Source: a virus
Virus record (IMG/VR): IMGVR_UViG_3300045988_111817
Span: 1-33,616 of that record
Strand: one strand, 5' to 3'
DNA: 33,616 bases
Every line of letters starts with the position of its first letter. The stretch's first letter is position 1. The position numbers and the translations under genes are program-made. The notes beneath the pieces were generated by a model. That model made no database searches and was not told the DNA's origin. It worked only from the letters and a program-made list of their open reading frames with translations. Positions 1 to 33,616 of the stretch are shown piece after piece.

Positions 1-141
1 CCGCATTCCGTTATGGGCAATGTCATATTTTTGAAAGCCGACCAAAATCATACGGGTTATCCCGAAAACTCGACAACGCTTATCACGGACGAACTCATTT
101 TACTGCGGGCGTTCGACGCAAAAGAGCCGAATAATACGGAC
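1..141. repeat. Terminal overlap, left copy. It is identical to 33476-33616, which indicates a circular contig with a 33475-bp unit genome.
   Basis: Direct comparison of the first 141 nt with the last 141 nt shows no mismatch. The offset is 33475. Confidence 0.95.
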
Positions 142-1107
142 GGCAATAGACGAGATTACGGCAACAACAGATATTCCGTATCGAACATAGACCATTGGTT
201 GAACTCGACGGCTTCTGCGGGGCAATGGTATTCGCCGCAACACGCAACAGACCAGTCACCGAACAGCACAAGCGTTGTGTCGCGAAACCCTTACGACACG
301 GATGCAGGATTTTTGACGGGTTTTGACGCTCGCTTCATTGCCGCAATTCAAGACACGACAATCAAGGTCGCACGCAACACCGTAACGGACGGGGGCGGTT
401 ATGACACGCTTACAAGGAAAGTCTTTTTGCCGTCCAAAGCGGAACTCTTTAATCAAGCCGAAAACTCGATTATGGAAGGCTCGCTGTTACAATATTTTCA
501 AGCAAACACAAACGCTATTAGAATAGCGAAAATATCCACCTACGCCGCAGAAGACAATAATAACAAAGGTCCGTCAAGCGTTACAGCGGGTACGGCTTCG
601 TACTATTGGATGAGAACACCCTACTCGTCGTACTCGTACTGTGTTCGCTTTGTCAATTCAGACGGTTCACTGTACTACCTCTATGCGTACTACGGAGACT
701 ACGGGGTTCGTCCGCTTTGTAATCTGAACTCTGAAACTCCCGTGTCAGACCAACCCGATAGCGACGGTTATTACTCGTTACTATTGGACGCAACAGGCGA
801 AATCGAACTTACTTACAATGTCAAGGAAACCGCAACAATGCCCACTGCTGTCAATATCGAATTAGACCTTGTAAAGACCTTTGGTTGCTCTACAACGGTC
901 GAAATTTGCAACAACGGTAATGATACCGTCCCCGTGTGGGAAGACGTTTCTACGGTCGTTAAATCGGGCGTAAACCATATCTTCGCAAACAAGACAAAGA
1001 CAGCGGACAAATGGAAAGTTGTCATCAAAATTCATATCGTGCGAAATGCCACTGTTGGCGATATAAAACTCTACGGGGTTAAGACTACATTTAAGGAAGA
1101 ACTGTAA
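13..1107 (+). CDS. DGR target (variable) protein, main body. The ORF-track start at 13 is internal.
   Basis: The 364-aa ORF contains the VR at 618-716. The motif YYWMRTP...VRFVNSDG...GVRP resembles the ligand-binding end of C-type-lectin/DUF6273-like DGR targets. About 129 aa follow the VR. Confidence 0.9.
   Translation: MGNVIFLKADQNHTGYPENSTTLITDELILLRAFDAKEPNNTDGNRRDYGNNRYSVSNIDHWLNSTASAGQWYSPQHATDQSPNSTSVVSRNPYDTDAGFLTGFDARFIAAIQDTTIKVARNTVTDGGGYDTLTRKVFLPSKAELFNQAENSIMEGSLLQYFQANTNAIRIAKISTYAAEDNNNKGPSSVTAGTASYYWMRTPYSSYSYCVRFVNSDGSLYYLYAYYGDYGVRPLCNLNSETPVSDQPDSDGYYSLLLDATGEIELTYNVKETATMPTAVNIELDLVKTFGCSTTVEICNNGNDTVPVWEDVSTVVKSGVNHIFANKTKTADKWKVVIKIHIVRNATVGDIKLYGVKTTFKEEL
618..716 (+). 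repeat. DGR variable repeat (VR)
   Basis: 99-nt alignment to 32177-32275 with 13 mismatches. Twelve are at TR adenines: VR 631, 640, 641, 650, 673, 676, 679, 680, 682, 691, 697, 700. One is G to T at VR 649. Confidence 0.92.
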
Positions 1108-4362: not shown

Positions 4363-4396
4363 GCATAAATTTTATAAAAAAATTGCAACAAAAGTA

Positions 4397-4425
4397 TTGA
4401 CAAATGCAAGAAAGGGGTGTATGAT
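4397..4425 (+). promoter_or_regulatory. Early rightward promoter P1
   Basis: TTGACA (4397-4402), 17-nt spacer, TATGAT (4420-4425). A TG lies just upstream and the upstream flank is A-rich. Confidence 0.65.
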
Positions 4426-4431
4426 ATAAGA

Positions 4432-7288: not shown

Positions 7289-7335
7289 GTGCGGAAAATT
7301 TTTGAAAAAACTTTGAAAAAAATATTGAAAAACTA

Positions 7336-7364
7336 TTGACAACAAGACGGGACGGGTGTATAAT
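7336..7364 (+). promoter_or_regulatory. Promoter P2, perfect consensus, with phased upstream TTGAAAAA repeats
   Basis: TTGACA (7336-7341), 17-nt spacer, TATAAT (7359-7364), with TG at 7357-7358. TTGAAAAA occurs at 7302, 7313 and 7325, spaced 11-12 bp apart. Confidence 0.7.
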
Positions 7365-7408
7365 GTAACTATAAAGATTAAGAAAGGCGCAAGCCAAAGG
7401 AGTTAAAA

Positions 7409-11137: not shown

Positions 11138-11424
11138 AGTCGATAATTCAGGGCGATAGCGAAGATAGGTGTTACATTTGCGGAAGAGCGGAGTGGATAG
11201 AACGACATCACATCTTCAACGGAACGGCAAACAGAAAGAAATCGGAAAAGTACGGACTAACCGTCCACCTTTGTCATTGGTGTCACAACGAGCCGCCGAA
11301 CGGGGTGCATTACAATCAGGATGCGGACACACGGTTGAAGCAAATCGGGCAAAAAGCGGCGATGCAGGAGTACGGTTGGACGGTGGACGAGTTTCGGGAA
11401 ATATTTGGGAAAAATTATTTATAA
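11134..11424 (+). CDS. HNH-like zinc-binding protein
   Basis: The Cys/His motif is CYICG...ERHHIF...HLCHWCHN. The start overlaps the upstream stop. Confidence 0.65.
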   Translation: MKSIIQGDSEDRCYICGRAEWIERHHIFNGTANRKKSEKYGLTVHLCHWCHNEPPNGVHYNQDADTRLKQIGQKAAMQEYGWTVDEFREIFGKNYL

Positions 11425-11440
11425 AATTGTTGAAAAACTA

Positions 11441-11469
11441 TTGACAAACACGGGACGGGGGTGTATAAT
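11441..11469 (+). promoter_or_regulatory. Promoter P3, perfect consensus, near-duplicate of P2
   Basis: TTGACA (11441-11446), 17-nt spacer, TATAAT (11464-11469). The block 11430-11469 matches 7325-7364 except inside the spacer. Confidence 0.7.
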
Positions 11470-11515
11470 AAGAGTAGAAATAAAGGAAAGGGCAATACCC
11501 TAAGGAGTTAAGAAA

Positions 11516-21609: not shown

Positions 21610-22908
21610 ATGGCAGCAAAACTTGGTAACTACAATGAACCGTTTGTAAACGGCGCAACTCTTAAAAGACTGTATTCGGCAGTCGTCAAAGATAACATTT
21701 TTCAGGATCTCTTTACGAGAGACGGCGAAGCGGTAACGGAAAAATACTGCGAAGACACTTCTGTCGCGCAAGTAACCGTTCTGCGTATTCTTCCTGGCAA
21801 CGGTGCGGCTCGTGCTATCGGCGCGGACACGAACGGCGGTTTCTTCAACGATAACCCTGCGTTCTTCAACCAAACCGAAGCGTACAATATCGACTTGCTC
21901 GATGTTGTTGACTTTATGATCGATATCCCCGAAGTACAGCAGGATATGATGTCCACCGACCTTGTCGCACAAAGGGCTAAAATCCTGGGCGGACAAGTAT
22001 CGCGTGCGGTCAACGCTATGACCATTGCGGCACAACTTGCAAGGAACTTCAACGATATCGCAAGCGGCAAAGTCGAGAAGAACTGGATTGTTATGGACGC
22101 AACTCCTGCAACTGGTGCATATCTCAAATACATCGTCAAAGCGAGCGCGAACCTTGACAACGGCAATCCTGACGAAGGTATCGACACCTATCCGATCGAA
22201 GAGAGGGCTATTTTCCTGCGTGCTGACTATAAGGGCGAACTTATGGCGGCTGGTCAACTCCTTGTTGGCGGCTCGAATGCGGCGCAGTATATGGTCAAAG
22301 ACGGCGGCTTGTCCCCCGAAGACAAATCGGATAACGTGACTGGTTTCAGCGGTCGTATCCTCGATATGCCTGTCTATATGGCTGGTGAAGCGGTATGGAA
22401 TATGGCGGCATCGTATCTCGGCATCGCTCCCGACAAAATCAAAGGCGTTAAAGGTCTTGTTGTATCGGGCATCGGCACTGGTCGTGGTCTTGCGTTCAAT
22501 GCTTCGATTAAACAAATCGACAGCCCGAACGGCGCAGGTCAGAGAATGCAACCTTTGTATCGCTTCGGTGCGGAATGCTGGGATGCACTTTCGGTCGTAC
22601 CTATCGTCGAAAACGGCTTCACGAACCCTGCAACGTCAAGTTCACAACTTACGGTCGTCGCTCCTGGCTCTCGTCTGTACACGATTACCTACGACAAGGG
22701 TACAGGCACTGGCACGGCTCCCACGGCTGTTACGGGCAAGAAATACGGCGAAGTCATCACTTTGTCGGACAGCACGGGCTTGACGGCTCCGAGCGGAAAG
22801 GCTTTCAAAGGTTGGGACGAAAACAAAGACGCAACCGCTCCGAAATACGCGGCGGGCGCACAATATGTTGTCAAGACCAACGCAACGCTTTACGCAATCT
22901 TTGCATAA
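21610..22908 (+). CDS. Major capsid protein with a C-terminal Listeria-Bacteroides-type repeat domain
   Basis: RBS AAAGGAG. The call rests on position and size. The last 77 aa (YTITYDKGTG...GKAFKGWDEN...TLYAIFA) fit the Flg_new repeat pattern. Confidence 0.75.
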   Translation: MAAKLGNYNEPFVNGATLKRLYSAVVKDNIFQDLFTRDGEAVTEKYCEDTSVAQVTVLRILPGNGAARAIGADTNGGFFNDNPAFFNQTEAYNIDLLDVVDFMIDIPEVQQDMMSTDLVAQRAKILGGQVSRAVNAMTIAAQLARNFNDIASGKVEKNWIVMDATPATGAYLKYIVKASANLDNGNPDEGIDTYPIEERAIFLRADYKGELMAAGQLLVGGSNAAQYMVKDGGLSPEDKSDNVTGFSGRILDMPVYMAGEAVWNMAASYLGIAPDKIKGVKGLVVSGIGTGRGLAFNASIKQIDSPNGAGQRMQPLYRFGAECWDALSVVPIVENGFTNPATSSSQLTVVAPGSRLYTITYDKGTGTGTAPTAVTGKKYGEVITLSDSTGLTAPSGKAFKGWDENKDATAPKYAAGAQYVVKTNATLYAIFA

Positions 22909-24225: not shown

Positions 24226-25085
24226 TTGAAGTTAAGCAATTTGTGGATATAATCGAAAATCAATTAAACGCGCTTGCTGTCGGAAAGGACTTTGTGTTCA
24301 AGATATATCCGAACGAGGGCGAGTTTGTTGATGTTATACAATCTTCGCAGACGGAACTCCCGAAAGATGTAATCTACGGCGTGGTAACATTTTTGCCGAA
24401 CACAACTATTCCGTTGGCGAACTTGGGTATATTCAACATTACGGCGAGTTTGTCTATTTTGGCTCCCGTAACGAGGGGCGCGTTAAGCAACGACGATACT
24501 TACGGACACGTCAATGAGATAGCGGATATCTTACAGAATTACTACCAACAGCAGACGGGCGCGAGTGGCACTTTAACCGACAAAAGCAACACGGCATACA
24601 AGTATGTGCTGGGCATTAACACTCCGCAGACGGGGCAAGAGAGCGTTTACGGAAAAGCGGGAAGAGCCGTGCCGTTGTCTATGGTGCTGTCGTGGCAACT
24701 CATACGGGGCGGCGTGTTGTTTACCGATGTTCACGTCCTTATTGACGGAACGGAAGTCGTATGCACGGACTTCGGCGCAGAACTGAATGTCGGGCAACAG
24801 ACGGACAACATCCAAAACGAAGCGTATTTGCAGTCGTATCCGCAAAGTCAGAACTTGTCGATGACGGTGCAATTACCGTACCAAAACACGGCATTGTGTA
24901 AAAAACTCATTGCACAATTATGGAACGGCACATTACAGCAGTCGTTCACAGTAAAATACTACGACGGCACAACCTACACGGAAGAAACCGCAGTCACGAA
25001 GAATATGATTGCAAGCAGAATAATCACAAACGCACAGCCTGGCACAAATATGGGCATTGTGGCAACATTTACTTTATCAAGGTAA
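24222..25085 (+). CDS. Tail structural protein, possibly tube-like
   Basis: ATGA overlap with the upstream gene. 287 aa and beta-rich. Confidence 0.55.
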   Translation: MIEVKQFVDIIENQLNALAVGKDFVFKIYPNEGEFVDVIQSSQTELPKDVIYGVVTFLPNTTIPLANLGIFNITASLSILAPVTRGALSNDDTYGHVNEIADILQNYYQQQTGASGTLTDKSNTAYKYVLGINTPQTGQESVYGKAGRAVPLSMVLSWQLIRGGVLFTDVHVLIDGTEVVCTDFGAELNVGQQTDNIQNEAYLQSYPQSQNLSMTVQLPYQNTALCKKLIAQLWNGTLQQSFTVKYYDGTTYTEETAVTKNMIASRIITNAQPGTNMGIVATFTLSR

Positions 25086-25091
25086 AGAGTT

Positions 25092-25532
25092 ATGGCAAAA
25101 CATTATGTAGTAACATTTGAATTAGGTGAAGGCGAAGGCGGCGGTCTCCGAATGAAGACAGGACAGGATAAGAACGGTGCAAACGAAGGCTCCGTTAAAT
25201 CCATAAGGAAGGCTGTTGCGCGAGTGTGGTCAAGCACAGACTTGCTTCGCACTACATTGGATGCTTCAATGCAAGTTGTATCACGCAACGAAGGGAATAG
25301 CCTTATCAACGAGAGATATCAGGCGGTCAAGGGTGTCGGGACAACTGCATTGACACTCGGGCTTGCGTTTGCGGCGGGCGGTGGTTTTGTTGGCTTGTCG
25401 GCAATGGCAGGAACGGCAATATCTTATGGACGAAAGATTGAGCAATTCAATTACGAGCGTCGGTGGGAGATGTACGGACTAACCGAGAAACGCGCAAGAG
25501 CGGGTGCGAACTTCAACAGGAGTAGATTATGA
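25092..25532 (+). CDS. Structural protein with a Gly-rich hydrophobic segment
   Basis: The 146-aa protein contains GVGTTALTLGLAFAAGGGFVGLSAMAGTAISY. Confidence 0.55.
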   Translation: MAKHYVVTFELGEGEGGGLRMKTGQDKNGANEGSVKSIRKAVARVWSSTDLLRTTLDASMQVVSRNEGNSLINERYQAVKGVGTTALTLGLAFAAGGGFVGLSAMAGTAISYGRKIEQFNYERRWEMYGLTEKRARAGANFNRSRL

Positions 25533-28483
25533 ACAATTTTCAGATTGATATACGCGAAAAAGGTAGTTGGAACAACCTTGACGGATGGGTGCGACCGTTC
25601 GACCTGACCTTTGCGTTAGATGAAACGCTGGATAGCGGCTCTGTTCAAGTTACAGGAAGCACAAGAAAGGCTATAATCAAGCCCTACACGCTTATAAGAC
25701 TGACGATTAACACAACGGTCAAGTATATGCTTGTACAGGACGCAAAACGCACGCAAAGCACCTTTTCGGGAACGATTAAGTACGATTGGAACATCACGCT
25801 TATCGAAACCACAAAAATGCTCGAAAGGATACCGTGCGACACAATGCGTTTCTCTAATTATTTGGGACACGATTATGCGGACGGAATAGTAATCAAGCCC
25901 GCAATTCAATATAGCAATACAATATGGATAGAGGGCGATGAGATTGTTGATAATGCACCGAATTATGTCAATACATATGTAAAGGATGCGACCTTGACAA
26001 TTTATGGCGCACAGGTCAAATTTGTACTGAAATCGGGCATTACTTGGTACTACCACACAGCATTGCCGATAAAAAACAGCCCGCAAACAGTTACGGTTAA
26101 GAACTCGGCGGGGACGGTAGTCTATACGCAAACTGCGTATGCCGATGCGGCGGGCAATCTTAATATGCCGAACGGGACGATACAATTAACCGACAAGAGT
26201 TATACGATAGAATACACGGGGTTCATTTGTAAGAGACGAACGGTTGGCGATACGCTCATAGCCGTGTTTACCGCAACATACCAAATAGCAACCATAGAAG
26301 ATATCGCGCCGAAAACTAACCCGACTATTACAAGCATTGTCGAGAAGATACTTCGTTCGGGCGTAACAAGGCGTGTCTATCGTGGGACGGGTGCGCTTGA
26401 TGATATAGACAAGCAACTTATCCGTTTTAACGCGGCACAGGCGGAAAAATACAAGGCAATCGAAACCGAATACAGCACGACGAGAAACACCTTTTTTGAA
26501 GCATTGTCGGGCGTTGGCGAGATTATCCACGCAATGCCGAGACTGAACTTTATCGACACATTCGGATATAAGGGATACGAACTTGTGTTTGACGAACTCG
26601 GCGGGAACGACGAATATACCGTCCCGACAACTGCCGAGATGACTTACGAGCAAATGTCTTTAACGGGCGACGAATACTGCGAAGCCATAGACAGCGTGGT
26701 TGAGAATATAATCAATACAACCGATGTTGATAAGGGCGCGATAGTAGAGCCGTCCACGGGAACATACAAGACTGTAAGGACAGAACGCGGCGGGTATAAG
26801 ATATCAGCCGACACGATGAGAATACAGACCGAGAGACCTATTTACAGGCTTATTAAGTTAGAAGTCTTGTGCAACGGGAAAGCGGGCGATATTACGGCTT
26901 ATGTCTATGAGAACGCGGAATATGAAGCCTTATCGGAATATGCGGGTGCGGTGTATCCGTACTCCAAAGCGTATGCATTGAAGTACACTTCGGGGCAGAA
27001 AGATATCACGGGGTTGACCTTCCGAGACAACGCGGTGACAGACTTGTCGTCGGCGTTCAGAAACTATGCGATCTACAATATTGTTAAACAAGTGTTAGAC
27101 ACGACGATATCGGACTATACTGCGTTGGCGTTCAGAGTGACCTACATTCCGTTGGTTACGGCGAGAATAACGCAGAGCAAGCCCTACACGGGGTGGGAGA
27201 CGGATTATTCGTCGAATGTGCTTATATCTAATCAAGGCGGGAATATGGTCGAGAGCGACCGCTATGGCGAACGCTTAAAGGGTTATATTGCAAGGCTGGG
27301 CAACAAACAAGTTGTGCGAACTTACAACTTTGCACAGTTTGAAGATTTACCGCAATGTGGGCAACTTATGTATGTCGAAGACGAATATATGTATGTGTCG
27401 CTCATCAATGCAAATCTCGACCAAAACAAGGTTAAGGCAACAATTCTCTTAACACCGCAATTCAATAGACTGTCGGAATATGTCGGACTAAACAGCGAAT
27501 ACAGATTATATGATGTTTCCGAAAAACAAGCAGTCGAAAGACTTGTAAATTATACAGAAAAGTGTTATATTACTTATAGAGCAACATCGACGCCTTCGAC
27601 AGTGCCGTTCATCAAGAGCGATGCGTATTTTTCTATTTTCCAAACGCTCGGAAGACGGGCGGACTACGATGCAGGAGAAGTGCCGACCGCCGCCTTGGTG
27701 CAAGTGAGCGGGACTTGGTTTGCGAGAACGCTCGACAAGAGAGCAAGCGGCAATAGCCTTGTGTTCGAGTTTGCGTTTGATGACAACTACGGCGTGGGCT
27801 ATCAGTCTATTCCTAACTCGGTATCAGGCGATGCGGCAAGGATACAACGATTAGTGCCTTATGGCAATGTCTATGGCGAGTTTGACACGATGAGAGTGCA
27901 GTTTGTGCCGAAAGCGTTCACGAACTCCGCCGACAAGATGAACAGTTATCCCGCAATCAACAGCGAGTATCTTACAGATGTATATCCGTTATTCGATACT
28001 TCGTCGCTGGAAAATAGCCTTTCCGTGTATCCGTTCCTTATCGACAAAGATAACAAGGAACAGATAAACTTCACTTATCAACTTAACTTCATTTCGGAGA
28101 TTAAGTCGGTGGTGCTGGGAACGGCGTTCTTCCGTAACAACGATTTACTTGTTGATAGATCAGGGCTTACGGGCGAGCAAAGAGTAGCGTTGAACCCGTC
28201 GATATACCTGATTAAAAAGCGACTGAATATGCTGTCGAAACCCGACCTTACGGGTGCGTTGAAACTAACTGCTCCGAACGGGCTTGCGTGTGTATTTCAA
28301 GACAACTATGCGAACAACGCGGGCTTTAAGACGGGATTACAGATAACGAACACAACAAACGAAACCTATGTTGGGTGGTGCGCGGTTGACGATAAAACAG
28401 GCGAACTGTATATCGGGGACAACTACGAACTGAAACCTAACCACACTGCACCGACACTATACTTCAATTTTAAGGAGTTATAA
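25529..28483 (+). CDS. Large tail / baseplate-like structural protein
   Basis: The 984-aa ORF has an AGGAG RBS and overlaps the upstream stop. Confidence 0.7.
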   Translation: MNNFQIDIREKGSWNNLDGWVRPFDLTFALDETLDSGSVQVTGSTRKAIIKPYTLIRLTINTTVKYMLVQDAKRTQSTFSGTIKYDWNITLIETTKMLERIPCDTMRFSNYLGHDYADGIVIKPAIQYSNTIWIEGDEIVDNAPNYVNTYVKDATLTIYGAQVKFVLKSGITWYYHTALPIKNSPQTVTVKNSAGTVVYTQTAYADAAGNLNMPNGTIQLTDKSYTIEYTGFICKRRTVGDTLIAVFTATYQIATIEDIAPKTNPTITSIVEKILRSGVTRRVYRGTGALDDIDKQLIRFNAAQAEKYKAIETEYSTTRNTFFEALSGVGEIIHAMPRLNFIDTFGYKGYELVFDELGGNDEYTVPTTAEMTYEQMSLTGDEYCEAIDSVVENIINTTDVDKGAIVEPSTGTYKTVRTERGGYKISADTMRIQTERPIYRLIKLEVLCNGKAGDITAYVYENAEYEALSEYAGAVYPYSKAYALKYTSGQKDITGLTFRDNAVTDLSSAFRNYAIYNIVKQVLDTTISDYTALAFRVTYIPLVTARITQSKPYTGWETDYSSNVLISNQGGNMVESDRYGERLKGYIARLGNKQVVRTYNFAQFEDLPQCGQLMYVEDEYMYVSLINANLDQNKVKATILLTPQFNRLSEYVGLNSEYRLYDVSEKQAVERLVNYTEKCYITYRATSTPSTVPFIKSDAYFSIFQTLGRRADYDAGEVPTAALVQVSGTWFARTLDKRASGNSLVFEFAFDDNYGVGYQSIPNSVSGDAARIQRLVPYGNVYGEFDTMRVQFVPKAFTNSADKMNSYPAINSEYLTDVYPLFDTSSLENSLSVYPFLIDKDNKEQINFTYQLNFISEIKSVVLGTAFFRNNDLLVDRSGLTGEQRVALNPSIYLIKKRLNMLSKPDLTGALKLTAPNGLACVFQDNYANNAGFKTGLQITNTTNETYVGWCAVDDKTGELYIGDNYELKPNHTAPTLYFNFKEL

Positions 28484-28484
28484 T

Positions 28485-31400
28485 ATGATTTTCTACTGCG
28501 ATTTACAAGGCAACCTCAAAGCGTTTCAAAACGAAACGGTGTATCAAGGATCGAACAACGTAACGACGATTTATGTCGTTGCGCCGTTCAACCGTCCCGT
28601 GGGGCTTAACATCTCGTTCACTAAACCGAACAAACTCGTTACAAGCCCTGCGATTATGAAGTGGGTGGGAACGCTTGGCAATGTCAAGATACCCGTTTCA
28701 TTCGTCAATATCCCCGAACAATTCACAGATACCTACAATGTGTGGGCGTATGCGTTGCCGTACTCTATCACGGAACAGAACGGCGTTGTGGGCGTGAGCG
28801 TCAACGCGGTTATTGCGGATAGCGTGGATGCAAGCGGACAACAGGCTTATACGGGCAATCTTACGACCTTTACGGGGCAATTCACGGTTGCTTATTCCGC
28901 ATTGCCTTCTCCGCCTACGGATATTCCGACCGAGTGGACACAGGACAAGGTGTTGGATTTGTTGAACAACTATTACAACGACGCCATTCAGAAGATAGGC
29001 GAAATGAACACCTTAAAGACCAACGCAAAGGATACGCTTGTCAAGGCGATCAACGAAGTATTTGACGAGATCGCAAGTACGAACGCAACGATTGGCGACC
29101 TTTCCAACCTTACCACCGACGAAAAGACCACGATTGTGGGCGCAATCAACGAAGTGGACGAACACGCTGACACGGCACAGCAAACGGCTGACAATGCCAA
29201 AGAATTGGCGAACACGGGCATTTCCAAAGCCGAACAAGCGCAAGCAACGGCTAACGGTGCAGTCGCCACGGCAAACGAAGCAAAGACCACGGCGCAGACC
29301 GCAGAAACGAACGCGAACAGTGCGGTAGATAAGGCAAATGACGCTGTCGGGAAAGCGAACGAAGCGATAATGAAAGCGGATGCAAAAGCGACTTCTATCG
29401 GCTTTATGACCGCAAAAGACGCTGTCACGGCATTGAACGGCTATCCGAGAAATCAACTTAAAGGCGGGGACACGATATGGATAGTTGAAGATGGAACGCC
29501 TGACCTTTGGGTTACGGAAGTAGCACAAGAAAGCGTGCCTTACAACTACACGACGAAAGACAAATTCAATCAAGATTTAGTCGATAACAAAGTCTTGCAG
29601 ATTGGCTATTTCAAGACCGCATACCAAGAAAGCGACGGCAAGCCCGTAACGATAGCGTGGCAAAATGTTGTTGTTAAAAATTGGGTGGCAAGCACGGAGT
29701 TTGCAGATTTCCCGTATGAAGCGAAGATAGAACTCACGGACTTTGTCGATTATACGACCGTTCCGCAAGTGGTGTTCGATATTGCCGATACGATGAGCGG
29801 AAACTATGCACCTATTTGTAAATCGGGTGATAAGTGTGTTTACATTTACGGCAAAGTACAAGACGAAATCACGCTTAAAACGGTCATCACCTTTGCACCG
29901 AATGTCAATGGTGCGAGCGTAACGGGCGGCGGATATAACAACCGCGGCAAATGGGTTGCAAGCACGACCTATGCAATCGACGACCTTGTTTACACCGACA
30001 ACGGACAATATGTTTGTATCGAGGGTATCACTTCAACCACTTCTCCCGAACAAGACACGGCGCATTGGCAAGCGACTTTTGTTGCGACAGGAACGACTAA
30101 AAACGGACTGAAATTCAGCGGGCAGAACGGCAACGGGACGGAAGTGCAAAAGACTTTTGACGGCTCGCAAGCGGTTGAAATAGCGTTCGACGAACAAACG
30201 ATGACAGCGAAAGAAGTCAACGGCGTTTTGGAAATCGGTGCGAGAGGGACTGTCCCCGAAGCGTTACCGCAAGAAGCGAGTGCGTTGAAGAGCGGGAACT
30301 TGCCGATAAGTGGGTGGGAGAAAACGGGTTTCCAAACTTTTTGGGAAGGAACTGCAAAATGCGATGCAAGTACATATAAACCTATTGGCACATCAAAAGA
30401 ACTTGCAGATATATTATACTCTGATGATACCGCTTATATGATGGTAGACTATAATTATCAATACTACGGCAACTATGACAAAAAAAATGCTAAGTTTTCG
30501 TACAAAAATAGTAACGCCTCTGTGGGCAGTATGACAGGCATATCTTTTAGAGCGGGCAGTCAAGTTGATAATCCTACGATTTTTATTACTCGTGACGGAA
30601 CAATGTACGGTCGCGGTAGTAACTTTGCAAGTTCGGCATACTCCGTTACTTATACTCGCATCGGAACATCAACAATATCGCAACAGTTCTACATCATTTC
30701 CGACACTTCCATAACCGTCAACAGCGACATCCTTATGGAACTCACGGACGAGGGCGGGGTAAAAGCCTATTCAATGGAAGCAGGCAATATAACCGTTATC
30801 CGCGACACAGTGCCTACACAGCCTATTCCGTACACTTATAAGGTCAAACAGACCAACGCAAGCGGACAGTTTACGGTATTAAACCATTATGTGTCGACTG
30901 TTCCTGTAACGAGCGTGAACGGACAAACGGGCGCGGTAACAATCGCAGTCCCGACCAAAACAAGCGAACTGACGAACGACAGCGGTTTTGTCAAACCCTC
31001 GGAAGCGAATACCTTTACAGGCGAACAGACCTTTTCCAACGCAAACGGCATAAAGACCAACCGCGTACACAATCTTAACGGTAACGCGTGGTACGACTTC
31101 GACGGAACGAACGACAGGTTTGGTAGCCTTGCAACACCGACCATTATCAGAACGAGCGAAGCAAGACCGAAAGCGGAAGTGCCGAGTGGAAGTGGTACAG
31201 CGACGAAAGAGTTAGCGTTGTTGGAAGATGTGCAAGGTGCGGGCGAATGGGTGGACGTAGTTAGCACATCGTATGAAGATAAATCACTGGTTAGGAAATT
31301 TGTATTTCCAGACCTTTCTGGCGATTTGGAAGGTAAATCGGTTGAAGTTGTTTACGAGCCGAAAACCTATGGTGCTTATACACGTGTTCTTTCGTTTGGT

Positions 31401-31628
31401 GTTATTTCTTTGCCGAAAGGCGGAACGGCGACAGATTCTCAGCGAACAGTTTCAGGGTTTTATCTTCGTACTGGCGCAGAAGAAACTGAAACAAATCCAG
31501 TATCTTGTTATATCCAAATCAACTTTAAGTATGTTTCTTCTACGACAGGAAGCAGCATACAAGTAACTGCTTTTACAAGTATTAAGGGTGCCGAGCAGCC
31601 CACGATTAAGTACCGTAAAATAAACTAA
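28485..31628 (+). CDS. Tail fibre protein
   Basis: RBS AAGGAG. There is an Ala/Asn-rich coiled-coil stretch (TAQQTADNAKELANTG...). The motif VNGQTGAVTIAVPTKTSELTNDSGF is typical of phage fibres. Confidence 0.8.
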   Translation: MIFYCDLQGNLKAFQNETVYQGSNNVTTIYVVAPFNRPVGLNISFTKPNKLVTSPAIMKWVGTLGNVKIPVSFVNIPEQFTDTYNVWAYALPYSITEQNGVVGVSVNAVIADSVDASGQQAYTGNLTTFTGQFTVAYSALPSPPTDIPTEWTQDKVLDLLNNYYNDAIQKIGEMNTLKTNAKDTLVKAINEVFDEIASTNATIGDLSNLTTDEKTTIVGAINEVDEHADTAQQTADNAKELANTGISKAEQAQATANGAVATANEAKTTAQTAETNANSAVDKANDAVGKANEAIMKADAKATSIGFMTAKDAVTALNGYPRNQLKGGDTIWIVEDGTPDLWVTEVAQESVPYNYTTKDKFNQDLVDNKVLQIGYFKTAYQESDGKPVTIAWQNVVVKNWVASTEFADFPYEAKIELTDFVDYTTVPQVVFDIADTMSGNYAPICKSGDKCVYIYGKVQDEITLKTVITFAPNVNGASVTGGGYNNRGKWVASTTYAIDDLVYTDNGQYVCIEGITSTTSPEQDTAHWQATFVATGTTKNGLKFSGQNGNGTEVQKTFDGSQAVEIAFDEQTMTAKEVNGVLEIGARGTVPEALPQEASALKSGNLPISGWEKTGFQTFWEGTAKCDASTYKPIGTSKELADILYSDDTAYMMVDYNYQYYGNYDKKNAKFSYKNSNASVGSMTGISFRAGSQVDNPTIFITRDGTMYGRGSNFASSAYSVTYTRIGTSTISQQFYIISDTSITVNSDILMELTDEGGVKAYSMEAGNITVIRDTVPTQPIPYTYKVKQTNASGQFTVLNHYVSTVPVTSVNGQTGAVTIAVPTKTSELTNDSGFVKPSEANTFTGEQTFSNANGIKTNRVHNLNGNAWYDFDGTNDRFGSLATPTIIRTSEARPKAEVPSGSGTATKELALLEDVQGAGEWVDVVSTSYEDKSLVRKFVFPDLSGDLEGKSVEVVYEPKTYGAYTRVLSFGVISLPKGGTATDSQRTVSGFYLRTGAEETETNPVSCYIQINFKYVSSTTGSSIQVTAFTSIKGAEQPTIKYRKIN

Positions 31629-31641
31629 AAGGAGATAAACT

Positions 31642-31806
31642 ATGTACGGAATATCAAACGGACAACAACAAGGTGGTGGGGGCGGCGGTGTGTCGTCCGA
31701 ACTCGTTACCACATTAAAAGGGACGGAGATTATAAAGACTTTCGACAACCTTGACGGATGCGAACTGACGAAAGGCTTTACTGCCGACGGGTATATCTAT
31801 TGTTAA
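31642..31806 (+). CDS. 54-aa Gly-rich ORF, below the ORF-track cutoff
   Basis: AAAAGGAG (31627-31634) lies 7 nt before the ATG. The protein begins MYGISNGQQQGGGGGGVSSE and ends GYIYC. Confidence 0.45.
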   Translation: MYGISNGQQQGGGGGGVSSELVTTLKGTEIIKTFDNLDGCELTKGFTADGYIYC

Positions 31807-31820
31807 AAGAACATAAGGAA

Positions 31821-32168
31821 ATGGCGGTTATTGTTAAAGCGAAATGTCTTATGGAACATAGTTTTAAGATGACCGCCAACACAAAACATTTCCCGAAAAA
31901 GTATCGTTTTTCTATCGGGGCGAGAATAGAAAACCTTGCGATAGAAATCTACGAAAGCCTTGTGCGGGCGAATGAAACGCAAGGCGACGAACGACTGACC
32001 AACCAACAAAACGCAATCATTGCTTGCAAGGTGCTAAATAGTATGATAGAATTGTCTTATAAGACCGTGCAACTCGCAATGAACTCTGTTGAGTATTGGG
32101 GCGGGTTAGTCGTGGAAGTTAAGCGAATGACCGTTGCGTGGCGAAATAGCGAGATTAAAAGGGTATAA
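31821..32168 (+). CDS. avd: DGR accessory variability determinant, a four-helix-bundle protein
   Basis: AAGGA (31815-31819) lies before the ATG at 31821. The pattern HFPKKYRFSIGARIENLAIEIYESLVRAN is typical of Avd/four-helix-bundle proteins. The gene sits directly upstream of the TR. Confidence 0.8.
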   Translation: MAVIVKAKCLMEHSFKMTANTKHFPKKYRFSIGARIENLAIEIYESLVRANETQGDERLTNQQNAIIACKVLNSMIELSYKTVQLAMNSVEYWGGLVVEVKRMTVAWRNSEIKRV

Positions 32169-32176
32169 TCTATTTT

Positions 32177-32275
32177 ACCCTACTCGTCGAACTCGTACAA
32201 TGTTCGCGATGTCAATTCAGACGGTTCACTGAACAACAACAATGCGTACAACGGAAACAACGGGGTTCGTCCGCT
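32177..32275 (+). repeat. DGR template repeat (TR)
   Basis: It starts 9 nt after the avd stop. It reads in the VR frame as YSSNSYNVRDVNSDGSLNNNNAYNGNNGVRP and is rich in AAC/AAT codons. Confidence 0.92.
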
Positions 32276-32418
32276 GTGGTGGATAGGTTAGACCGAGTAG
32301 CGAAAGCGAAAGCACAACTCACCAACAAAGGAGATTATATCCTTTCCGCAAAAGGACAAATACACGATTATCGACACGATTGCGGTTTACGGCGAAAGTT
32401 ATAAGCGATAAGGAAAAA
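32276..32418 (+). promoter_or_regulatory. TR-to-RT spacer, likely the structured 3' part of the DGR RNA
   Basis: It contains GCGAAAGCGAAAGC and the triplet AAAGGA / TCCTTT / AAAGGA at about 32329-32358. That triplet can form two mutually exclusive hairpins. Confidence 0.45.
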
Positions 32419-33447
32419 ATGTACGACAAAATATATAACTTGCAAAACCTTTACGGCGCATACTTAAAGACACGGCGTGGCAAGCGGTGGAAATCATCGG
32501 CTGTCAAGTTTGAGATTAACCTTATAGAGGCGTTGTTGTTGCTTAAAAAGCAACTTATCGACAAGACCTACACTCTGTCGCAATACAATGTTTTCAAGGT
32601 TTATGAGCCGAAAGAACGGCTTGTAATGAGCAACGGATATAAAGACAAGGTGGTGCAACATTCGTTGTGCGACAATGTTTTAGAGCCTATCATCACACGG
32701 TCGTTCATTTTGGACAACTATGCGTCGCAAGTCGGCAAGGGTACGGACTTTGCATTAGACAGATTAAAGTACTTTATGGGGCGATATTACCGCCTTTACG
32801 GTGCTGACGGGTGGGTTTTGAAGTGCGATATAAGGAAGTACTTTTACAACATAGACCACGATATATTGAAAGGTATGTTGCGGAAAATGATAACTTGTCA
32901 AGACACCTTGTGGCTGTGCGACTTGATTATAGATAGCACGGACGGCAAGGGAATACCGATAGGCAATCAGTCGTCGCAACTCTTTGCGCTTTTGTATCTT
33001 AACGGGTTAGACCACTATATCAAAGACAAACTCGGCGTGAAATTCTACGGGCGATATATGGACGACTTCTTTCTGATACACAAAGACAAAAACTACCTTA
33101 AACAATGCTTGGTCGAAATCAATGAGTTTGTGGCTCGATTAGGGCTTGAACTCAACGAAAAAACTCACATATTTCCGCTACGCAACGGCATTAACTTTTT
33201 AGGCTTCCACACATACTTGACCGAAACGGGCAAGGTCATAATGAAACTACGGAGCGACAAAAAGCACAAACTGCTCCGCAAGTACAAGAAAATGTACAAA
33301 CTCTGTCAACAAGGCATTATCGACCAACAAGCGATAAACCTATCTTGGCAAAGCACAAAAGGACACATAGCAAGGGGCAACACACACCACTTGCTGAACG
33401 ATTTAGAATTCAAATTAAAGGAGATACAAAATGGCAACTTTAAGTAG
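32419..33447 (+). CDS. DGR reverse transcriptase
   Basis: AAGGA (32410-32414) lies before the ATG at 32419. Motifs seen: KCDIRKYFYNIDH, IPIGNQSSQLFALLYLN (DGR-type GNxxSQ), GRYMDDFFLI (YxDD) and INFLGF. Confidence 0.9.
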   Translation: MYDKIYNLQNLYGAYLKTRRGKRWKSSAVKFEINLIEALLLLKKQLIDKTYTLSQYNVFKVYEPKERLVMSNGYKDKVVQHSLCDNVLEPIITRSFILDNYASQVGKGTDFALDRLKYFMGRYYRLYGADGWVLKCDIRKYFYNIDHDILKGMLRKMITCQDTLWLCDLIIDSTDGKGIPIGNQSSQLFALLYLNGLDHYIKDKLGVKFYGRYMDDFFLIHKDKNYLKQCLVEINEFVARLGLELNEKTHIFPLRNGINFLGFHTYLTETGKVIMKLRSDKKHKLLRKYKKMYKLCQQGIIDQQAINLSWQSTKGHIARGNTHHLLNDLEFKLKEIQNGNFK

Positions 33448-33616
33448 TTTACCGATTGGGGCAAAAATAAAAGTACCGCATTCCGTTATGGGCAATGTCA
33501 TATTTTTGAAAGCCGACCAAAATCATACGGGTTATCCCGAAAACTCGACAACGCTTATCACGGACGAACTCATTTTACTGCGGGCGTTCGACGCAAAAGA
33601 GCCGAATAATACGGAC
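33431..33616 (+). CDS. DGR target (variable) protein, true 5' end. It continues in frame into window positions 1-1107 across the circular junction, giving 383 aa in total.
   Basis: ATG at 33431 is preceded by AAGGAG (33418-33423). It is in frame with the ATG at 33488, which corresponds to window position 13. It overlaps the RT stop (33445-33447) by 17 nt. It adds MATLSSLPIGAKIKVPHSV to the ORF-track protein. Confidence 0.8.
   Translation, partial: MATLSSLPIGAKIKVPHSVMGNVIFLKADQNHTGYPENSTTLITDELILLRAFDAKEPNNTD
33476..33616. repeat. Terminal overlap, right copy. It is identical to 1-141.
   Basis: Same comparison as for the left copy. The repeat lies inside the DGR target ORF, so that gene is split by the linearisation. 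Confidence 0.95.

Follow-up and report, generated by a model that had tools for sequence, protein, structure and literature searches.

When a viral contig carries a reverse transcriptase (RT) near one end and, near the other, a repeat that such an enzyme might rewrite, do the two belong to one element? The question is raised by a 33,616-nt stretch of virus DNA, positions 1 to 33,616 of IMG/VR record IMGVR_UViG_3300045988_111817, analysed here at its full length and termed the window. Joining its ends brings together an avd gene, a template repeat (TR), an RT gene and a target gene bearing a variable repeat (VR), that is, the four parts of a diversity-generating retroelement (DGR). The original prediction, made from the letters alone, had proposed a complete Avd-type DGR split by nothing but the contig ends. 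Our analysis supports this, and we hold it very probable that the locus is a complete Avd-type DGR. A check of the sequence bears out the contiguity of the four parts on the closed circle, as well as every position predicted for them. The features are as follows.

31821..32168, + strand: avd (accessory variability determinant), 115 aa, ATG at 31821 and TAA at 32166-32168.
32177..32275, + strand: TR, 99 nt with 29 adenines, beginning 9 nt past the avd stop.
32262..32275, + strand: the 14 nt closing the TR at its 3′ end, GC-rich and adenine-free, GGGGTTCGTCCGCT; the same 14 nt stand at VR positions 703-716.
32276..32418, + strand: spacer (Sp) RNA between TR and RT, conserved in relatives and resembling Rfam RT-2.
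32419..33447, + strand: reverse transcriptase of the DGR, 342 aa; contains the motifs IGNQSSQ and YMDD.
33431..33475, + strand: first 15 codons of the 383-aa target, overlapping the RT 3′ end by 17 nt (RT stop 33445-33447).
1..1107, + strand: remainder of the target, with DUF6273 (aa 38-258), a linker and a C-terminal anchoring (Cterm_Ig-like) domain at about aa 285-383.
618..716, + strand: VR, placed by alignment to the TR and encoding aa 221-254 at the C-terminal end of DUF6273.
33476..33616, no strand assigned: terminal duplicate identical to 1-141, left by assembly where a genome of 33,475 bp, circular or circularly permuted, overlaps itself.

Closure of the circle rests on the exact copy of window positions 1-141 at 33476-33616, which leaves a non-redundant unit of 33,475 bp. 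Across the join the target frame runs from the ATG at 33431 to 33475 and continues through 1-1107. A linear ORF call begins instead at the ATG at position 13 and loses 19 codons, and a linear annotation sets RT and VR 31 kb apart, both as had been predicted. Two further contigs are the same genome as the window: L097 (ena:ERZ27289468:k141_100748), of 33,616 bp (33,475 + 141) and with its breakpoint elsewhere, and L098 (ena:ERZ1031330:NODE_164), of 33,530 bp (33,475 + 55). Each is collinear with the window and gap-free from 23431 past the wrap-around, over 11.8 kb for L097 and 21.2 kb for L098. Because both run uninterrupted across the wrap-around, the junction between RT and target is real. 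Overlaps of 141 and 55 bp are what assemblers leave on circular paths, and we read the sizes of the three contigs in this way. The genome, assembled independently from at least three gut samples, is that of a 33,475-bp circular (or circularly permuted) Caudoviricetes phage of the human gut.

The repeat pair has the asymmetry expected of a DGR. TR and VR are mismatched at 13 of 99 positions, and 12 of these 13 fall on the 29 TR adenines (binomial P = 3.8e-6); the sole mismatch elsewhere is a G at 32208 that corresponds to a T at 649. A TR pattern with its adenines masked has exactly two matches in the window and none in 100 shuffles. Searches of both strands of the window with blastn and with an adenine-tolerant scan found no second VR. 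The full-length masked pattern has no match in IMG/VR; when shortened, it locates 14 loci in metagenome contigs. The codons of the TR comprise 10 of the form AAY and five with a single adenine, and no adenine change in them can yield a stop codon. Redrawing these 15 codons gives about 6e14 possible proteins. The flanks of TR and VR diverge directly after the shared GGGGTTCGTCCGCT, like an IMH*/IMH pair (IMH, initiation of mutagenic homing), and by analogy the GC-rich end may serve as an IMH-like boundary.

The RT had been predicted to be of DGR type, rather than that of a group II intron or retron, and comparison with PDB sequences agrees. It matches Pfam RVT_1 (E = 1.2e-16) and PHROG 1423 (E = 2e-122), and its best PDB relative is 8ub7_A, the RT belonging to the DGR in Bordetella phage BPP-1 (E = 4.7e-40, 141 bits), from a structure of the DGR ribonucleoprotein; the top group II intron RT among the PDB matches reaches E = 2.9e-9 and 40 bits. 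In the alignment to 8ub7_A, IGNQSSQ falls on IGSLTSQ and YMDD on YMDD. In BPP-1 the residues at these motifs touch the template and the incoming nucleotide.

The product of the upstream ORF matches PHROG 3206, ‘Avd protein of DGR’ (E = 2e-20), and a protein in nr identical to it bears the name ‘Avd-like protein’. A phmmer search of PDB sequences with it returned only noise. Its AlphaFold2 (AF2) model has four helices (mean pLDDT 77), and Foldseek matches this model to the Avd-related bundles 2gsc and 2rld, to BPP-1 Avd (4dwl) and to the Avd chains of 8ub7, with TM-scores of about 0.6-0.67, probabilities of 0.9-1.0 (0.95-0.99 for 4dwl) and weak E-values of about 0.1. The four-helix bundle that had been proposed for this ORF is thus the predicted fold.

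The RNA around the TR contains two candidate helices and the elements listed here.

32158..32171, + strand: avd-side arm of the avd:Sp duplex, spanning the avd stop codon, found as an inverted repeat and by folding.
32332..32345, + strand: Sp arm of the avd:Sp duplex, found as an inverted repeat and in the alignment of relatives.
32278..32282, + strand: TR-3′ arm GGTGG of a putative template-primer duplex, directly 3′ of the TR; 99% of cells are paired.
32319..32323, + strand: Sp arm UCACC of the putative template-primer duplex, placed by alignment.

The avd:Sp duplex is the analogue of the ‘cPRT Stop’ duplex of BPP-1; the study describing that duplex also predicts stop duplexes for 207 out of 278 further DGRs. 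For covariation analysis the avd 3′ end, TR and spacer were aligned in 21 relatives, and 19 pairs were scored over the 14-bp and 5-bp helices. In the two helices 93% of cells pair, against 44-55% in slid controls, and none of 500 shuffles scored as high. Nine pairs over both helices show compensatory change, eight of them among the 14 of the avd:Sp duplex; in the TR:Sp duplex one pair (alignment columns 139/200) is altered on both sides in six sequences. Both BPP-1-type RNA helices are therefore present and supported by covariation. The energy of the avd:Sp duplex does not discriminate it from shuffled arms (median z = -1.1). A conserved CAAAGG follows the UCACC arm and, by analogy with BPP-1, may hold the adenosine from which cDNA synthesis is primed. 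After the Sp arm at 32332-32345 come a short hairpin and then a conserved A-rich stretch, ACAAAUACA (about 32356-32364), both of which we take as probable elements from their conservation and from published DGR RNA.

The spacer gives a full-length match at 32283-32433 to Rfam RT-2 (RF03077), at 32.7 bits (E = 2e-5) against a gathering score of 40. In the RT-2 consensus one stretch (AAAGGAG...) is annotated as single-stranded; it corresponds to the arm through which the spacer pairs at long range with the 3′ end of avd, a partner situated beyond the Rfam motif.

Is the element at work? Variation confined to the TR-adenine sites of 618-716 had been predicted, with a read pileup as the proposed check, and comparison between assemblies, standing in for the pileup, displays it. 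L097 differs from the window at 18 of 11,812 bases and L098 at 6 of 21,152; every difference lies inside the VR, and 22 of the 24 are at TR adenines. Under uniform mutation such confinement has a probability of about 1e-38 for L097 and 1e-14 for L098. Since L097 differs from the window inside the VR alone, VR turnover outpaces other mutation in this lineage, where the DGR is evidently active, as judged from these sequences.

More distant sequences show the same pattern. Three metagenome contigs (L087, L090 and L095) share 93-96% identity and the layout of the window. Among the VRs of the window, L087 and L095, variation occurs in 20 TR-adenine columns and in two others (Fisher P = 4e-12), both of which track differences between the TRs. 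Across 121 homologues of the target, the 11 most variable columns are exactly the AAY-type codons of the TR; mean entropy is 2.93 bits for VR codons with adenine at position 1 or 2, 0.59 for other VR codons and 0.25 for the rest of the protein.

The one mismatch outside the adenines also has a history. TR position 31 (0-based; 32208) is G in the window and A in relatives, so that the codon is GAT here and AAT there; the VR has T. The TR of another relative, L179, is intermediate: position 4 is T and position 31 A. Because the relatives and L179 hold A at position 31, the VR of the window copy predates the A to G change in the TR. L097, with the same TR as the window, has G at VR site 649, as expected after homing from the present TR. 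Substitutions among the TRs of L087, L090, L094, L095 and L179 are all on adenines (4 of 4): A/T at position 4, A/G at 31, and A/G at 0 and 51 in L094. This could be chance, adenine making up about 30% of the TR, or could reflect occasional mutagenesis of the TR or gene conversion from VR to TR. The VRs of the window and L098 have ten substitutions relative to the TR in common, including the double change AAC to CTC. That six adenine sites, scattered along them, nonetheless differ suggests conversion in patches or steps, or else recombination between VR haplotypes. That VR and TR evolution departs in these ways from a redraw of the whole VR from an immutable TR, with the TR itself occasionally hit, is a tentative idea that we consider rather unlikely.

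Some observations concern the target and the engine in relatives. The N-terminal part of the target outside the VR (1-617) diverges by 6.5-9.7% among close relatives, and avd, RT and spacer by 0.6-2.6%. Secondary variable columns of the target lie at aa 64, 67, 97, 106, 110, 215 and 216. In L094 (ERZ1034669 NODE-178), which is 89-94% identical, the spacer and most of the RT are missing (window equivalent 32276-33342); the deletion begins exactly at the TR 3′ end, and TR, avd and the target with its VR are kept, which looks like a DGR that lost its enzyme. L180 (ERZ1314586 NODE_284, 50 kb) is a different, larger phage that carries an 87%-identical target right after a small ORF, with no avd-TR-RT block in between (window equivalent about 31803-33406). 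Its VR-like stretch has 22 adenine-site changes and six other mismatches, and no TR was found within the 17 kb examined. Because L180 has the target without this block, the DGR engine appears to act as a present/absent module.

What does the element diversify? The target matches Pfam DUF6273 (E = 2.1e-36) and PHROG 10993, ‘Hoc-like head decoration’ (E = 1.3e-87). We compared it with the targets of the phages nd12 (OR777946) and nd4 (OR777945), both from Int J Mol Sci 2023 (PMC10743442), and of Faecalibacterium phage FP_Mushu (MG711460; Microbiome 2018, PMC5883640). Over the N-terminal 284 aa of nd12 tgt1 the identity is 50%, and over the last 90 aa of tgt1 it is 32%, the internal Ig domains of tgt1 being skipped. 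The targets of nd12, nd4 and FP_Mushu can be aligned over its C-terminal 90-110 aa, which contain the invariant motifs N-N-x-x-D-x-x-P-x-W-E-D and F-x-N-K-x-x-T-A; an Ig fold for this domain is hinted at by the beta-strand content of a model with pLDDT 35. Phage tentaclins have 313-649 aa and one to four Ig domains (PMC10743442), a size range into which the 383 aa of the target fit, and work on Faecalibacterium prophages describes DUF6273 targets with the VR at the C-terminus of that domain. By sequence, then, the target would be a short ‘tentaclin’, a ligand-binding DUF6273 head followed by a single conserved C-terminal domain, presumably its anchor on the virion. It probably lets binding keep pace with a ligand that changes, whether on the surface of the host or in the gut. 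The lone solved relative of DUF6273 found by sequence is 9qa6_A (residues 33-262, E = 8e-16), the 1145-aa chain of a gut-bacterial IgA protease, of which the matched part is the N-terminal domain. A paper on the ThomasA IgA protease names the N-terminal domain of that enzyme DUF6273 and reports it dispensable for IgA cleavage. 9qa6 offers a solved-structure handle on a DGR target domain.

The cassette follows two features of the gene neighbourhood.

28485..31628, + strand: tail-fibre-like gene, 1047 aa, with weak PHROG tail-fibre matches (best E = 6.6e-11, aa 201-318).
31642..31806, + strand: conserved 54-aa ORF between the fibre gene and avd, from the ORF call.

The original prediction had the cassette directly behind the fibre gene; the nearness stands, and ‘directly’ does not, since the 54-aa ORF intervenes before avd. 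Equivalents of this ORF, of 52-54 aa, are called in L097, L098, L179 and L180. All long ORFs of the window are on the + strand. The genome codes for terminase, portal and minor head protein, for a replisome organiser and a Rad52-like protein, and, just ahead of the cassette, for a 984-aa protein and the 1047-aa fibre-like protein. Within the genome we recognised no integrase, tRNA or lysis gene, and no sheath, tube or tape-measure gene. A megablast search of GenBank phages with 25000-33475 gave no match, so that relatives there are at the protein level only, and a prophage search with the terminase, aimed at finding the host, returned nothing. Among bacterial genomes the closest RTs belong to Clostridia of the gut, Christensenella sp. 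UBA7588 and Oscillospiraceae among them, and the host is therefore probably a member of this group. A 60-nt promoter-like repeat occurs in three copies (4367-4426, 7306-7365 and 11411-11470), each consisting of A/T-rich sequence, then TTGACA, a spacer and TG-TATAAT/TATGAT; these are probably early or middle phage promoters. In the head module, a 432-aa ORF (21610-22908) without a PHROG match carries a Listeria-Bacteroides repeat domain at its C-terminus (Pfam Flg_new, E = 5.6e-8).

On the model of BPP-1, the cassette would work as follows. A single transcript would hold the avd 3′ end, TR and spacer. Upstream of the TR, 32158-32171 would pair with 32332-32345 of the spacer, and downstream of it 32278-32282 with 32319-32323. 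The folded RNA would be bound by a complex of RT and Avd and primed in cis from the spacer adenosine. The TR would then be copied into cDNA with misincorporation opposite its adenines, and the cDNA would replace the VR in the target immediately 3′ of the RT, guided by the identical adenine-free GC-rich end, with the divergent downstream flanks setting the direction. The 15 redrawn codons would lie in a loop at the C-terminal end of DUF6273. The four intact parts, the adenine-specific mismatches, the helix covariation and the VR-confined variation were observed here; cis-priming, the mechanism of integration and the role of the GC-rich end are carried over from BPP-1 and so are put conditionally.

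Several results weigh against a complete and working DGR. The Avd matches to NCBIfam DivGenRetAVD (E = 1.6e-10) and Pfam bAvd (E = 1.9e-7) are both under the curated cutoffs. The whole RNA folds no better than shuffles (minimum free energy z = -0.26), and 3′ of the VR there is only a weak 5-bp stem (about 730-750) whose fold likewise resembles that of shuffles (z = -0.48). The AF2 model of the target, built with 34 close homologues, has a pLDDT of 35 and is unusable for a C-type-lectin fold or a VR beta-hairpin; it is poor because the 120 homologues among the matches listed are all at least 84% identical, which makes a shallow alignment. With T at 649 against G at 32208, the window's VR records no full-length homing from the present TR, and the VR of L097 has an unexplained A at 622 (position 4) although its own TR has T there. 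This 32208/649 mismatch, which makes the VR older than the last TR change (AAT to GAT), together with relatives that lack the RT (L094) or the whole avd-TR-RT block (L180), might mean that the cassette was recently silenced or is decaying, homing having ceased and the VR differences being older standing variation. We think this improbable, since RT, Avd, TR adenines and RNA helices are intact, and sibling L097, with the same TR, carries G at the VR site and differs over 11.8 kb in the VR alone. Still less probable is a linear genome whose ends physically bear the 141 bp as a direct terminal repeat, so that the target would truly be interrupted or truncated there. Exact terminal repeats can be real in some phages, but in L097, whose breakpoint is elsewhere, and in L098, over 21 kb, the junction of RT and target is internal and collinear with the window, and contigs of 33,475 + 141 and 33,475 + 55 bp, one of them in a record named ‘k141_...’, have the sizes generally known from assembler overlap. 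An RT from a group II intron, a retron or an antiviral RT system, beside a 99-nt repeat that is coincidental or a recombination product, is scarcely credible. The NCBIfam search does point that way, in that it returned no DGR RT family and its top match was group_II_RT_mat (TIGR04416), followed by Drt3a and the retron St85 RT; but the scores of 97, 60 and 35 bits are far under the respective cutoffs of 300, 200 and 235, and no Rfam family reaches its threshold in the window, neither an intron nor a retron RNA. Where the top group II RT has 40 bits, the BPP-1 RT reaches 141, the repeat mismatches are adenine-specific, and the TR is flanked by an Avd gene and by RNA helices of DGR type. The family scores, the Rfam scan and the BPP-1 match refute an identity as group II intron, retron or Drt.

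The complete Avd-type DGR thus remains our reading of the cassette, and the alternative that deserves most weight concerns its product. The original prediction saw in the variable protein most plausibly a receptor-binding accessory of the tail; it might instead be a Hoc-type capsid decoration or an environmental adhesin, for instance for mucus or glycans, in which case the DGR would tune gut retention rather than host range. The PHROG 10993 label speaks for this, as does the C-terminal domain, which shares 43% identity with its counterpart in the ‘Hoc-like head decoration protein’ of FP_Mushu. The authors who described tentaclins allow that these may bind intestinal epithelium rather than bacteria (PMC10743442), and a secreted gut-bacterial IgA protease is also headed by DUF6273. 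However, the ‘Hoc-like’ label is based on Ig-like domains alone, the tentaclin anchoring domain is unlike that of T4 Hoc (PMC10743442), and the gene sits after tail-fibre genes here and in nd12, nd4 and FP_Mushu. We consider a capsid or adhesin role possible but somewhat unlikely. The evidence carries no further than a binding protein of tentaclin type attached to the virion; a role as tail accessory would go beyond it.

Closing the circle restores a textbook cassette that a linear reading breaks, and the locus restored is one more of a kind that is already known. Published work covers its mechanism, gene order, RNA elements and target family, and the genome is in public databases with Avd named. 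The locus opens no new question and is of modest interest as a known DGR type. It does offer a clean natural system in which DGR turnover can be measured against background mutation, because assemblies from at least three gut samples differ solely in the VR over the 11.8 and 21.2 kb compared; the RT-less L094 and the engine-less L180 serve as comparison.

The order avd-TR-RT-target and the type of target recur in nd12, nd4 and FP_Mushu, with their own TR/VR pair where checked, and in dozens of the IMG/VR contigs checked. Phages nd12 and nd4, from the human gut like that of the window, have the same avd-TR-spacer-RT order with a target overlapping the RT stop, RTs 63% (nd12) and 46% (nd4) identical to that of the window, and a VR at the C-terminal end of DUF6273, mid-gene rather than at the 3′ end. 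They differ in targets of 569-579 aa with three internal Ig/Fn3 domains, which the 383-aa target lacks, in a second target upstream, where the window phage has one VR, and in a tail-sheath gene, whereas none was recognised in the window genome; the remainder of their genomes is unrelated to the window at the DNA level. FP_Mushu, a cultured phage of gut Clostridia, likewise runs from tail genes through bAvd and RT to the target, and the identity of its ‘Hoc-like’ target in the C-terminal domain extends over aa 307-374. Its RT is a more distant relative, its target has four Ig-like domains, unlike that of the window, and its spacer matches Rfam RT-9 at 86 bits, above threshold, whereas the window's spacer matches RT-2 below threshold.

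With BPP-1, the mtd-avd-TR-brt prototype, the window has in common a homologous RT with aligned catalytic and I-G-x-x-x-S-Q motifs, a four-helix Avd, the avd:Sp ‘cPRT Stop’ and TR:Sp duplexes, an adenine-free GC-rich 14-nt end of VR and TR, and a TR dominated by Asn AAY codons. The BPP-1 TR is 134 nt long against 99 nt here, and its target, Mtd, lies upstream of avd, whereas the window's DUF6273 target lies downstream of the RT. The hairpin 3′ of the VR is a feature of BPP-1 that is not universal, and the window has no convincing one. Beside these systems, the locus adds to the DGR-carrying gut phages a minimal tentaclin with one Ig domain and a single VR.

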